From positions 32,001-96,000 of IMG/VR virus record IMGVR_UViG_3300048065_001187: 64,000 nt of DNA. One strand, 5' to 3'. Within the stretch, counting starts at the first letter, position 1. The number at the start of each line of letters is the position of its first letter. Below, in pieces: positions 4,582 through 57,170 of this stretch. Below the pieces are notes generated by a model. It saw nothing but the letters and a program-made list of their open reading frames with translations, was not told where the DNA came from and did not search any database. This DNA is from a virus. The position numbers were made by a program, and so were the translations under genes.

Positions 4582-4586
4582 GTGTA
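4582..4586 (+). promoter_or_regulatory. GTGTA promoter-like motif
   Basis: GTGTATAAA, 14 nt before ATG 4596; recurs at the same spacing before other genes. Confidence 0.65.
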
Positions 4587-4595
4587 TAAACTTAC

Positions 4596-5507
4596 ATGCA
4601 TAAAATAAAATCCTTAGTTACTGGTGGGGCTGGCTTTATTGGTAGTCATCTTATTGAACGCTTGCTAAAAGCAGGGCATGAAGTCGTAGTAGTTGACGAT
4701 GAGTCTTCTACTGCTAATTCAAATTTTAACTGGAGAGAAGATACGGAAAATCATAAAGTTGACATTTGTGATTTTGATAAGCTTGAACCTTTATTTAAAG
4801 GAGTTGATTTCGTTTTTCATTTAGCTGCTCGATCTCGCATACAAATTTGTGTGCAAGATCCATCTGATGCAGTAAAAAACAACTCTCTTGGGACAGTTAA
4901 TGTTCTGCAATCCGCAAGACTGAACAACTGCAAGCGAGTAATGTTTGCCGGAACTTCTTCTTGCTACGGTTTAGCTAATCCGATTCCACTACAAGAGGAT
5001 ATGCCAAATGATTGCCTTAATCCTTATTCTGTAAGCAAAGCAAATTGTGAAGAATTATGCAAAATGTACACAAAGCTTTTTGGGCTAGAAACTGTACTAT
5101 TTAGATTTTTTAATGTTTACGGTGAGCGTCAACCTTTAGCTGGCGACTATGCTCCTGTTATTGGCCTATTCTTCAGGCAAAAAGAAGCAGGTCAACCAAT
5201 GACGGTTGTAGGTGATGGGCTTCAAACTAGAGATTATACATATGTAAAAGATATTGTTGAAGCTATGTACTTGGCTGGAGAGTCACAAAATAAAGAAATT
5301 ATCGGTGAAATGTTTAATCTTGGCACCGGAAGAAATCACTCTGTCCTTGACATCGTTGATTTAGTCGGGGGCAAACATTCTTTTATTGATGCCAGACCAG
5401 GAGAATCCAGAGAGACTTTGGCCGACAACACGAAAGCCAGAACTCTACTTGGATGGAACCCCGCCCAAAGATTTGAAGATTGGGTAAAAGCGAATCGACC
5501 ACAATGA
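4596..5507 (+). CDS. NAD-dependent nucleotide-sugar epimerase/dehydratase (extended SDR)
   Basis: VTGGAGFIGSH, HLAA, YSVSK, RFFNVYG, GDGLQTRDYTYV. Confidence 0.9.
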   Translation: MHKIKSLVTGGAGFIGSHLIERLLKAGHEVVVVDDESSTANSNFNWREDTENHKVDICDFDKLEPLFKGVDFVFHLAARSRIQICVQDPSDAVKNNSLGTVNVLQSARLNNCKRVMFAGTSSCYGLANPIPLQEDMPNDCLNPYSVSKANCEELCKMYTKLFGLETVLFRFFNVYGERQPLAGDYAPVIGLFFRQKEAGQPMTVVGDGLQTRDYTYVKDIVEAMYLAGESQNKEIIGEMFNLGTGRNHSVLDIVDLVGGKHSFIDARPGESRETLADNTKARTLLGWNPAQRFEDWVKANRPQ

Positions 5508-6334
5508 AAATTGGAGTAATTGGCAATGGGTTTGTTGGTTCTGCAGTTGCCAGCGGTTTCGGTAAATACGATGTAAAAGTTTTCGACAAGAATCCTGATA
5601 TATCGCAGAATTCATTAGAAGAAGTTTTAACTCAAGATTTTGTTTTTATTAGTGTACCAACCCCCATGAAAGATGCCATGGGAGCTGATTGCAATCTATC
5701 AATTATAGAGTCTTGTTTTGATGAAATTGACTCTATTGGTTCAAATGCTATATTTATTATAAAATCTACAGTACCAATCGGCACAACTAAAAACCTACAG
5801 AGTAAACATCGTAATCTTAATATTGTTCATTCTCCCGAGTTCCTGACTGCCAAATTTGCCAAAGAAGATTTTTTAAATGCCGATAGGCATGTGGTAGGGT
5901 ATACTAGAAAGAAAAGTGTTGGTGAAAAAGCTATTAAATTATTCAACAATGCATTCCCGAACATACAAACTATATTAATGAAGAGCGATGAATCTGAATC
6001 CGTTAAGTATATAGCCAATTGCTTCTTTGCAACTAAGGTTAGTTTTTTTAACGAAATCCATGGTTTGATTAATAAGCTTGGGTTAGACTGGCACTCAATT
6101 ATTAATGGCGTAATGAGTGATAAGCGAATCGGGCAATCTCACTTTCAAGTGCCAGGCCATGATGGAGATAAAGGTTTCGGCGGCACATGCTTCCCCAAAG
6201 ATATTAATGCTCTAATAAAAACTTTCGAAAAAAATGGATTAGATCCAAAATTATTAAAATCTGCTTGGGAAGTAAACCTTGATGTAAGGAGCGATTTAGA
6301 TTGGGCTAGGTCAGAATCTGCAGTTAAAGAATAG
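5504..6334 (+). CDS. UDP-glucose/GDP-mannose dehydrogenase family, short form
   Basis: GNGFVG, SVPTP, IKSTVP, SPEFL, GFGGTCFPKD. Start moved to ATG 5504 (ATGA overlap). Confidence 0.85.
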   Translation: MKIGVIGNGFVGSAVASGFGKYDVKVFDKNPDISQNSLEEVLTQDFVFISVPTPMKDAMGADCNLSIIESCFDEIDSIGSNAIFIIKSTVPIGTTKNLQSKHRNLNIVHSPEFLTAKFAKEDFLNADRHVVGYTRKKSVGEKAIKLFNNAFPNIQTILMKSDESESVKYIANCFFATKVSFFNEIHGLINKLGLDWHSIINGVMSDKRIGQSHFQVPGHDGDKGFGGTCFPKDINALIKTFEKNGLDPKLLKSAWEVNLDVRSDLDWARSESAVKE

Positions 6335-6361
6335 ATTGTTAATAAGTTAGCGAGATTGGTC

Positions 6362-6390
6362 TTGCATTACACGAATTTCTATGGTAACAT
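6362..6390 (+). promoter_or_regulatory. sigma70-type promoter upstream of nrdA
   Basis: TTGCAT-N17-TAACAT with extended -10 TG, in the 6335-6453 intergenic gap. Confidence 0.6.
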
Positions 6391-54720: not shown

Positions 54721-54730
54721 CATTATGGGA

Positions 54731-57127
54731 ATGGATCTATCACCAAATTTTACTCCAAAAGCTCAGCAGATGATCTCACAAGCTAAGTCTTTTGCGACAT
54801 CCTTGAACGACGAAGAAGTAGAGCCTGCTCACTTACTATTGGTTATATTAAATTCAGGAGATGCTTTAGTTGATGATTTCCTTGCTAGCTTTGGGTTTAC
54901 TGCTGATGAAGTCAAGGCATTTGTCACTACTTTTTGTGGCTTAAAAAAGAATGAAGACAATGACGAGCAAGCTAAATTTTCAGAAGATTTTGCTATTGTT
55001 CTTTCTAAGGCTCATGAATTTTCTCAAGAAATCAATGATGACTATGTTGGTATAGAGCATTTCTTTTTTATATTTTTAAATTCTTTTGATGGAGCATTGC
55101 ATAGCTTTTTTAAAGCTTACGATGTTGATGTTCAAAATTTAGTTAAAACATTTATTCTTTTAATAAAAAGTAGCGATCTCAATTTCCCTCAGACGGCAGT
55201 TAGTAATAAAACAACTCGCCCGCATGTTGCTCCTCAAAACAACAAAGAAAGTACATTAGAATCTTTTTCAGTAAATTTAAACAGGCTTTCTACCGAAGGA
55301 AAGATAGGAAAAATTATAGGAAAAGATTATGAAATTGAAAGAGTGTGCGAAATTCTTTCAAGAAAAACCAAAAACAATGCTCTACTTATAGGGGATCCTG
55401 GCGTTGGTAAAACGGCTATAGTAGAAGGCTTAGCACACAAAATAGTATCAGGCAAAGTGCCTCCATATCTTTTAGATAAAGAAGTTTATGCTGTAGACTT
55501 AGCCTCAATGATTGCGGGCACAAAGTATAGAGGTCAATTTGAGCAGAGAATTAAATCTCTTCTCTCTGAGTGCAAAGACAAATCTAATGTTATTTTATTT
55601 ATTGATGAAACGCATACCATTGTTGGGGCAGGAGGAGCAGAAGGGGCAATGGATGCGGCTAACATATTAAAACCTGCGCTTGCAAGAGGAGAAGTCACAC
55701 TTATTGGAGCTACCACCTTCCCTGAGTTCAAAAAAAATATCGAAAAAGATGTTGCCTTGACTAGAAGATTTGAACCAATACATGTACAAGAGCCAAGTGT
55801 TGAAGAAACTTACTTGATATTAAAAGGATTAAAGAAGTCTTATGAAGAATTTCATGATGTAAAATATCCAGTAAAAGTACTAAACCAAATCGTCCAGCTT
55901 TGCGATCTATATCTTCCTAATAAAAAATTCCCAGATAAAGCTATTGATGTACTAGATGAAGTTGGCGCTAAAGTAAAGATCAGAAACTTGACGCCTCCGA
56001 AAGAAATTCTTAATCTAGAAGATAAAATCTATGGAGCGATTGACGCTGATCCTAAGAATAGTGCAATAGAAGAAGGGTTAATGAAGACATACGAAGACCT
56101 TTTGAATAATTGGAAGGCCGAACCTATTGAGCCTATCTCTTCTGATGATATTCTTTCTGTTATTTCTCAAAAAGCAAAAGTTCCTAAGGAAAATTTGGTG
56201 CATGAAAAAGATGATAGAACAAAGTCTATTCAAAAATCTCTTTCTAAATGCATAATCAATCAGCCAGACGCGGTTTCCTGCATGAGTAGATCTATACTTA
56301 GATCTAAAATAGGCTTAAAAGATAATAAAAAACCAATTGGTTCTTTCTTATTTTTAGGGGCCACGGGAGTTGGAAAAACTTGGAGTGCTAAGATGTTAGC
56401 TAAACATTACTTCGGCTCAGAAAAGAATATATTTCGTTTTGATATGTCAGAATATTCTGAAAAAGTATCCTCATCTAAATTAATCGGTGCATCACCAGGA
56501 TATGTTGGCTATGAAGAAGGCGGCCTGTTGATAGAGAACTTAAAAAAGAAGCCTCATTGTGTTCTTCTTTTTGATGAAATTGAAAAATCTCACCCAGAAG
56601 TTCAACAACTACTACTACAAGCTCTTGAAGAAGGAGAGATTGAAGATAACAGTGGTAATAAAGCCCACTTTAAAGATACCATAATTATCTTAACAAGTAA
56701 CATTGGGTCAGAGTTAACCACAAAATCTACCTTAGGCTTCGGACCTTCTGCAGAATCTAACACATCGAAGATACATGACGCCGCAAAGAAGATACTTAGC
56801 CCCGAATTAATAAATAGGCTAGATGAAATTGTAGTATTTAATCACTTGGAAGAAAAAGATTTACATAAAATATTTAAAAATCAAATAAGAAATCTACAAA
56901 CCAAGTTAAAATCAAAAAATATTAAAATAAATTATTCAGATGAAGTACTGGAGTTTATGTGTCACCAAGCTGCGTCCGAAAAAATGGGAGCAAGACCTCT
57001 AAAACGACTAATACAGCAGAATATAGAGGATCAAATTGTAGATTATTATTATAATAACGATATTATTTCCAGTGCTTTGTTTAATTTTACAGTCGTAGGA
57101 GAAGAAATTAGATACAATATATCATAA
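54731..57127 (+). CDS. clpC: ClpA/ClpC-type AAA+ unfoldase
   Basis: Clp-N repeats, GDPGVGKT, FIDE, FPDKAID, GATGVGKT, PGYVGYEEGG, LGF loop, GARPL. Confidence 0.9.
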   Translation: MDLSPNFTPKAQQMISQAKSFATSLNDEEVEPAHLLLVILNSGDALVDDFLASFGFTADEVKAFVTTFCGLKKNEDNDEQAKFSEDFAIVLSKAHEFSQEINDDYVGIEHFFFIFLNSFDGALHSFFKAYDVDVQNLVKTFILLIKSSDLNFPQTAVSNKTTRPHVAPQNNKESTLESFSVNLNRLSTEGKIGKIIGKDYEIERVCEILSRKTKNNALLIGDPGVGKTAIVEGLAHKIVSGKVPPYLLDKEVYAVDLASMIAGTKYRGQFEQRIKSLLSECKDKSNVILFIDETHTIVGAGGAEGAMDAANILKPALARGEVTLIGATTFPEFKKNIEKDVALTRRFEPIHVQEPSVEETYLILKGLKKSYEEFHDVKYPVKVLNQIVQLCDLYLPNKKFPDKAIDVLDEVGAKVKIRNLTPPKEILNLEDKIYGAIDADPKNSAIEEGLMKTYEDLLNNWKAEPIEPISSDDILSVISQKAKVPKENLVHEKDDRTKSIQKSLSKCIINQPDAVSCMSRSILRSKIGLKDNKKPIGSFLFLGATGVGKTWSAKMLAKHYFGSEKNIFRFDMSEYSEKVSSSKLIGASPGYVGYEEGGLLIENLKKKPHCVLLFDEIEKSHPEVQQLLLQALEEGEIEDNSGNKAHFKDTIIILTSNIGSELTTKSTLGFGPSAESNTSKIHDAAKKILSPELINRLDEIVVFNHLEEKDLHKIFKNQIRNLQTKLKSKNIKINYSDEVLEFMCHQAASEKMGARPLKRLIQQNIEDQIVDYYYNNDIISSALFNFTVVGEEIRYNIS

Positions 57128-57154
57128 TTTATTGTTCAAGTGAGCCATATTATA

Positions 57155-57159
57155 GTGTA
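57155..57159 (+). promoter_or_regulatory. GTGTA promoter-like motif
   Basis: GTGTATAATA, 16 nt before ATG 57171. Confidence 0.65.
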
Positions 57160-57170
57160 TAATACTTATT

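Follow-up and report, generated by a model that had tools for sequence, protein, structure and literature searches.

GTGTA set just before start codons as a candidate one-element post-early promoter in a large uncultured marine phage

Background

In a stretch of phage DNA of 64,000 nucleotides (hereafter the window; bases 32001–96000 of the IMG/VR record IMGVR_UViG_3300048065_001187, 150,766 bp, 34% G+C), the five-letter word GTGTA recurs a few bases before start codons. What does this word do there, and what would read it? The original prediction, made from the letters of the window, took it for a single-element late promoter that is read by a phage sigma factor and gives leaderless or near-leaderless messages. 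Here, we weighed that proposal against rival explanations. We put a probability of about 72% on a broader version of it: GTGTA would be a one-element post-early promoter, used by the host core RNA polymerase with a phage-made sigma factor, and its messages would mostly be leaderless or nearly so.

The start sites used are our own longest open reading frame (ORF) calls –188 for the whole genome, 164 of them on the + strand– and some of these starts are wrong, TTG ones especially. Two relatives were used alongside this genome (G000): G001, a 214-kb relative, and G029, a distant complete relative. With a DNA identity of 74–94% around the sites, G001 is not a fully independent replicate, whereas G029 is independent.

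Results

Placement and strictness of the word

GTGTA as such is not over-represented in the window (53 copies vs. 66.5 ± 7.4 in shuffles). Its position is what stands out. No other 5-mer is as enriched as GTGTA in the 25-nt stretches that precede the 188 called starts of the genome (13 vs. 1.4 expected), and 10 of the 109 genomic copies lie 14–16 nt before a called start, where 0.34 would be expected (p ~3e-12). The genome-wide positional enrichment that the original prediction had proposed as a check was thus found.

The word is also strict. When this genome and G001 were pooled, exact GTGTA was 49-fold enriched at the 14–16-nt offset (25 vs. 0.51), and all 15 one-letter variants reached at most 2.6-fold. 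G1 and G3 are strictly invariant. The base that follows GTGTA is in no case a G (0/38), and A/T makes up 82% of the 8 nt after it, compared to 66–68% at intragenic copies. Among 16 sites, we found no second conserved position from −45 to +35, with only the five GTGTA columns being informative. This is in line with the claim of a single element, as there is no second conserved position within 45 nt upstream.

Chance, or a by-product of A/T-rich junctions and stop codons, deserves practically no credence. The word is short and several sites come directly after a TAA stop, but the counts refute it: besides the p value of the placement and the lack of any enriched one-letter variant, the same placement recurs in G001, in G029, and before the ribonucleotide reductase gene nrdA of diverged relatives.

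Spacing, Shine-Dalgarno words, and leaderless design

Pooled over this genome, G001, and G029, the sites form two spacing classes: a short one of 13–16 nt and a long one of about 18–40 nt. Shine-Dalgarno (SD)-like words were found at none of the 44 short-spacing sites (0/10 for those of this genome), at 7 of the 26 long-spacing sites (p 5e-4), and at 102 of 603 other genes of the three genomes. An example of the long class belongs to a 374-aa gene immediately to the right of the window, where AAGAGGA stands between the motif and the ATG. The absence of SDs noted in the original prediction is therefore confirmed for the short class.

The start codons of the short class are 34 ATG, 10 GTG, and no TTG, with GTG about fourfold enriched. 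They match the ATG/GTG rule for leaderless translation, which was shown experimentally in mycobacteria (PMC4633059). The predicted near-leaderless messages are consistent with this geometry, with the lack of SDs, and with the ATG/GTG-only starts.

The leaderless design seems to be a habit of the host-type promoters of this phage too. In the whole genome, TTGAC boxes lie exactly 35–36 nt before an ATG in 13 cases, most of them with TAnnnT at −12 to −7, and G029 has 19 TTGAC boxes at exactly 35 nt. A leaderless architecture would have its −10 element at a constant 6–8 nt from the start codon, which agrees with the position of TAnnnT in the TTGAC class and with GTGTA at 14–16 nt. Early genes are predicted to be exactly leaderless. 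Strong SDs (GGAGG, TAGGAGGT) are used elsewhere in the phage, and its coding DNA avoids SD-like words (AAGGA, GGAGG). Therefore, the host reads SDs, and GTGTA is not an SD substitute.

A signal in DNA or in RNA

We measured word avoidance inside genes with a shuffle of third codon positions that left the amino acids and the dinucleotides at both junctions unchanged. TACAC, the antisense word, was depleted in the coding DNA of the three genomes: 55 vs. 89.9 in this genome (z −5.1, rank 6 of 1,024 for depletion), 77 vs. 125.6 in G001 (rank 3 of 1,024), and 49 vs. 98.9 in G029 (z −6.8, rank 1 of 1,024). Six one-letter neighbors of TACAC were not depleted, and sense GTGTA was only mildly so (z −2.4, −1.9, and −2.6 in the three genomes). 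Since nearly all genes lie on one strand and it is the antisense word that is avoided, the pattern fits a signal that would start antisense transcripts, not a ribosome or RNase site. Thus, it points to a signal at the DNA level.

The region upstream of nrdA gives a second view. In 19 relatives with 60–96% protein identity over the N-terminus, GTGTA is kept in 16, at a spacing of 14–17 nt in 15 of them and of 22 nt, with an SD-like AAGG in between, in the other one; the flanks can mostly no longer be aligned. In the remaining three, GTGTA's place is taken by TTGACA-N17-TAATAT or TAGTAT. Here, one promoter type is exchanged for another. Together with the avoidance inside genes, this swap for a canonical TTGACA/TAnnnT promoter supports the claim that GTGTA is a promoter.

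A role in RNA would read the same sites differently: GTGTA could be a non-SD ribosome-binding signal, or the place where a phage endoribonuclease cuts polycistronic messages so that leaderless ones result. The constant distance to start codons would suit both, as would the many sites at tight junctions in same-strand gene runs (gaps of 0–27 nt) and a scan for terminators just upstream of the sites, which found none. However, it is the antisense strand of genes that shows the strongest avoidance, and a signal in RNA would leave this unexplained. The partner in the nrdA swap is a canonical promoter, not an SD. At spacings of 18–35 nt a separate SD follows the motif, and the ordinary SDs that the phage uses elsewhere, with SD-like words avoided in coding DNA, also count against a role in RNA. 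We consider an RNA-level role very improbable. Four independent lines –the avoidance inside genes, the conservation and swap at nrdA, the leaderless habit, and the two spacing classes– point to a DNA signal.

Register of the word and reading by the host

Taking the A or G of the start codon as +1, GTGTA spans from −14 to −10 up to −16 to −12. At the 15-nt spacing, its TA falls at −12/−11, exactly where the TA of the TTGACA-class −10 hexamer lies, and both coincide at nrdA. In an alternative alignment to the AATGTA element of phage phiEco32 (T−12, G−11), transcripts would begin 1–3 nt before the start codon. The predicted leader is 0–3 nt under either alignment.

This register raises the question of whether a host holoenzyme, with its primary or an alternative sigma and perhaps a phage activator, reads GTGTA as an unusual extended −10, with no phage sigma involved. 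The position of the TA at the 15-nt spacing would favor it, and at nrdA the word coincides with the TAAAAT found 17 nt after a TTGAAA. Moreover, Thermus phages use extended −10 promoters with the host sigma A. The finer details disagree. In TGnTAnnnT, the TG would have to stand one base further from the TA than it does in GTGTA, and T at −7, invariant in most TTGACA-class promoters of the phage, is present in only ~50% of cases after GTGTA. Since T−7 is not required and the TG is out of register, a different sigma is the better match. Host −10 recognition does not require the strict G1 and G3 either, and the motif is present in all 30 searchable records that have a homologue from a conserved phage sigma family, as described below. 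Reading by a host holoenzyme is thus unlikely.

Candidate sigma factors

The phage sigma factor that the original prediction called for was searched, and two sigma-like genes were found, both outside the window. They are mutually unrelated. No multisubunit RNA polymerase gene was detected; the search for a T7-like polymerase had no working control, as no control genome has the family, and was uninformative.

The first gene encodes a divergent sigma70-family protein of 207 aa and lies just left of the window (genome 29492–30115, L003:15492-16115, − strand). It heads a minus-strand block that includes a single-strand binding protein, and a host-type TTGACA box precedes it. We found 694 homologues, several named sigma factors by the Joint Genome Institute (JGI), and the family occurs on 323 viral contigs. 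The protein has a weak Pfam Sigma70_r2 match and a match to a PHROG sigma-factor family, and its profile aligns to SigA region 2.2–2.3 with a ‘KFSTY’ signature. Its AlphaFold (AF2) model, with a predicted local distance difference test (pLDDT) score of 80, matched only sigma factors in the PDB (SigH, SigD, sigma32, sigma A, and WhiG). The C-terminal domain is helical, with a conserved ‘LSIQGCINIH’; it aligned to SigA region 4 without reaching significance, and the full-length fold matches cover it.

This family travels with the motif. All 30 searchable records with a homologue (40–74% identity) carry GTGTA-N9-11-ATG, with 315 matches vs. 121 for a reversed-word control in the same 30 records. 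A complete 51-kb phage that has only a distant sigma of the extracytoplasmic function (ECF) type, and no homologue of the 207-aa protein, showed no convincing motif. The 207-aa protein is our favored candidate as the GTGTA reader.

The second gene encodes an ECF-like sigma of 181 aa (genome 122350–122895, L005:10350-10895, + strand). It is the clearer sigma by sequence, with 44 bits for Sigma70_r2 and profile matches to sigma E, SigW, and CnrH, and it is an early-region gene with TTGACT promoters upstream, all of which would agree with this protein, rather than the 207-aa one, being the reader. Its distribution says otherwise: we found only 16 homologues in 5.8 billion proteins, and 5 viral contigs with it. 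It was found in 5 of 20 motif-bearing relatives and not in the complete motif-bearing genomes G008 and G029, although G029 shows all the features in full, the antisense avoidance among them. ECF sigmas also normally need a −35 box. That the ECF-like protein reads GTGTA is, in our opinion, quite improbable.

Next to this gene, an ORF with helix-turn-helix (HTH) and HNH endonuclease domains (L005:10879-11451, + strand) overlaps its last 17 nt. We considered that a frameshift had split the ECF-like sigma and rejected it: the next ORF is this separate endonuclease, and 181 aa is full length in the 16 homologues. The ORF is probably a homing endonuclease inserted beside the sigma gene.

GTGTA sites and the genes behind them

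All 11 GTGTA words listed in the original prediction are present on the + strand of the window, and 10 of them have a start codon 14–16 nt from the first G. Two stand before sugar epimerase genes: the one at 4582–4586, 14 nt from ATG 4596 of a nucleotide-sugar epimerase/dehydratase, and the one at 31697–31701, 14 nt from ATG 31711 of a second sugar epimerase. The word at 6439–6443 is 15 nt from ATG 6454 of nrdA, the ribonucleotide reductase large subunit, and overlaps a weak TTGAAA-N17-TAAAAT match at 6419–6447. At 27777–27781 it lies in the 3′ end of the upstream gene, 16 nt from ATG 27793 of a 581-aa HATPase_c protein in the glycan-gene block. The word at 57155–57159 is 16 nt from ATG 57171 of a 1437-aa tail-fibre-like protein.

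Smaller genes follow at other sites. The word at 9315–9319 is 15 nt from ATG 9330 of a 126-aa protein with no family match, and the one at 45090–45094 is 15 nt from a GTG start at 45105 of a 95-aa ORF, a GTG start that is kept in G001. At 49026–49030, it is 16 nt from ATG 49042 of an 89-aa ORF, and a TTGACG lies 23 nt upstream of the motif. The word at 11596–11600 is 16 nt from ATG 11612 of a 28-aa hydrophobic ORF (11612–11698), which has a 25-aa counterpart in G001. About 70 nt later, within what counts as a 227-nt ‘gap’, there is a strong SD (TAGGAGGT) and the ATG of another small ORF.

Two words need comment. The one at 54716–54720 adjoins the DNA polymerase stop codon, and the ClpB/ClpA-like ATPase behind it has an ATG at +9 (54725) and a second in-frame ATG at +15 (54731), so the spacing of 14–16 nt holds only with the second. 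This gene has three candidate starts in 18 nt (54716–54733): GTG at the motif itself and the two ATGs, both of which are moved by one position in G001 by one extra base. The word at 9382–9386 (+) was rejected as a site, as it is intragenic, inside ORF 9330–9710 and 10 nt before an out-of-frame ATG.

The host-type promoters of the window show the leaderless geometry as well. A sigma70-type promoter, TTGACT-N17-TATTAT-N6, at 9982–10016 (+) ends exactly at ATG 10017 and predicts an exact leaderless message. A TTGACT box opens the stretch 45385–45419 (+), exactly 35 nt from ATG 45420 of a DnaB-like helicase, with a less clear −10 hexamer (TATAGA).

That nearly every gap lacking TTGAC has GTGTA holds roughly for the window and is less true genome-wide. 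Among 14 window gaps of at least 12 nt, seven have GTGTA, three have only TTGAC, and four have neither –most of these four are gene-calling artefacts. In the whole genome, the corresponding numbers are 13, 23, and 31.

The ‘late’ label of the original prediction turned out to be too narrow. The motif precedes nrdA, the sugar epimerases, the ClpB-like ATPase, small genes beside replication genes, the tail fibre, and a gpJ-like tail gene. It would mark a general post-early class.

Genome setting and host

The window holds the ribonucleotide reductase, the two sugar epimerases, which lie inside a long block of small overlapping genes, and further on the DnaB-like helicase, the DNA polymerase, the ClpB-like ATPase, and the tail-fibre-like protein. 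To its left, genome 1–22 kb carries lambda-like tail genes (minor tail protein, tail protein L, and the gpJ-like protein). To its right, genome 120–150 kb carries many small genes behind TTGACA boxes, plus homologues of RIIA and RIIB (genome 146674–150178, L006:15908-19412, + strand). These two have a TTGACA box and a leader of ~60 nt each, and they lie at the right end of the record, adjoining the tail genes of its left end.

ARAGORN reported zero tRNA or transfer-messenger RNA (tmRNA) genes. A full-length tmRNA that it missed is present outside the window (genome 108068–108435, L004:14068-14435, + strand; Rfam RF00023, 121 bits, E 6e-49) and is 97.6% identical in G001. A TGnTATA-type box ~30 nt upstream is common to both genomes. 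A GTGTA lies 52 nt upstream of the gene, and we dropped the tmRNA as proof of a non-coding GTGTA target, because this copy is not kept in G001 and the shared feature is the TGnTATA-type box.

In coding DNA, ACGT-containing words (ACGTT, GACGT, AACGT, TACGT, and ACGTA) are among the most depleted 5-mers, along with GCGCT and GCAGC. Their depletion suggests restriction-site avoidance.

Among 50,697 GenBank phage records, a search for near-identical DNA and tblastn with the two sigmas turned up neither a cultured relative nor a host. A profile scan of genome contigs with the sigma alignment gave 12 contigs of metagenome-assembled genomes (MAGs) in bins of mixed phyla: five Bacteroidota, two Bdellovibrio-like, and others. 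We distrust a host assignment from these bins. The clear SDs and TTGACA/TAnnnT promoters of the phage argue against a Bacteroidota host.

Discussion

In the mechanism we propose, the promoter would consist of GTGTA followed by a non-G base and ~8 A/T-rich bases, and would drive the post-early genes, both middle and late. Its reader would be the host core RNA polymerase with a phage sigma, most likely the 207-aa protein. GTGTA would take the −10 or extended −10 place if transcription begins on the start codon or 1–3 nt before it. Most messages would then be leaderless or nearly so, and translated without an SD from a 5′-terminal ATG or GTG. Where GTGTA lies 18–35 nt upstream, the message would have an ordinary leader, often with an SD.

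The nearest described system is phage phiEco32, and the resemblance is functional only. Its middle and late promoters have an AATGTA element centred at −11.5, and their reader is its own sigma, gp36, with gp79 (PMC12276001, PMC8948821). gp36 still needs contacts at −37 and −34, aided by gp79 (PMC12276001). The phiEco32 relative 7-11 has a two-part promoter (PMC8948821), in place of the one-part promoter of phiEco32; therefore, such sigma families change promoter architecture. In both phiEco32 and the phage studied here –where it is inferred from sequence– a phage-made sigma redirects the host core polymerase to post-early genes. Both have one short −10-region element that shares a TGTA core, with no −35 consensus, and both keep host-type −35/−10 promoters for early genes. 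The first two letters are GT here and AA there, and a position right against the start codon is not described for the phiEco32 promoters. For the two sigmas of our phage, hhalign detected no homology to gp36 (probabilities of 0.1% and 2.8%), and gp36 was absent from the PDB profile matches.

The original prediction compared GTGTA to the late promoters of T4, an analogy that stands as a functional likeness and goes no further. T4 late promoters (TATAAATA) are a single −10-region element with no −35, used by gp55 together with gp33 and the sliding clamp. Region 4 is missing from gp55, a minimal sigma, and T4 late messages have leaders with SDs. Here, the word is another one, the 207-aa candidate has a sigma2 and a putative sigma4 domain, and the messages are predicted to be near-leaderless.

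Regarding leaderless transcription, promoters whose −10 adjoins the ORF and gives leaderless mRNA are described in Deinococcus-Thermus (PMC12340547) and mycobacteria (PMC4633059). As in those bacteria, the element is set at a constant distance of a few bases before the start, there is no SD, and the start is ATG or GTG and never TTG. The difference is that they use the host TAnnnT and the primary sigma, whereas this phage would have a second, phage-specific word and also uses SDs. In the Thermus phage phiYS40, post-early messages are reportedly mostly leaderless, from promoters without a −35 that the host sigma A reads (Sevostyanova et al. 2007); a phage sigma is proposed here instead. In the literature, a search for GTGTA promoters of phages gave no relevant paper.

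Several points weigh against the reading we prefer. Transcription from GTGTA, the sigma that reads it, and the positions of the 5′ ends are all inferred, and the sigma is tied to the motif through co-occurrence, a pattern for which there is hardly a negative control beyond one complete record that lacks both. The ECF-like sigma, or an unrecognised factor, could be the reader. Group 3 and 4 sigma factors usually need a −35 element, and none is conserved here. Five bases carry only ~10 bits, and the genome has ~95 other copies of GTGTA; therefore, the phage either tolerates spurious initiation or uses determinants beyond the word. The scan that found no terminators just upstream of the sites and the lack of conservation of the GTGTA before the tmRNA gene add to this. 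Besides, the distant relative G027 has hardly any sites of the short-spacing class, and too few sites to reveal a variant geometry.

Conclusions

Tentatively, the wider picture is that of a large clade of uncultured marine phages, hundreds of contigs strong, with a private sigma, an invariant five-base promoter without a −35, and post-early messages that are mostly born leaderless. On the methods side, avoidance of a word on the antisense strand would be a cheap sequence-only test to tell a promoter from an RNA-level signal in genomes with nearly all genes on one strand.

If the proposed mechanism is true, a phage sigma can act from a five-base, −10-only signal. The design in which the promoter abuts the ORF would extend from Deinococcus-Thermus and actinobacteria to a phage-specific class of promoters. 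Gene starts and regulons would be readable directly from metagenomic phage sequence, which would give a simple annotation rule for transcription units and true starts –GTG starts and small ORFs included– in hundreds of uncultured marine phages.

For the biology of these phages, it would mean that the initiation of both transcription and translation changes to a mode that goes around the SD route, while the host and the leadered phage genes keep to that route. One 5-bp code would co-regulate nucleotide metabolism, a glycan factory of ~30 kb, and the virion genes, so that the sugar, sulfation, nucleotide, and virion genes of the phage would be turned on together after the early phase.

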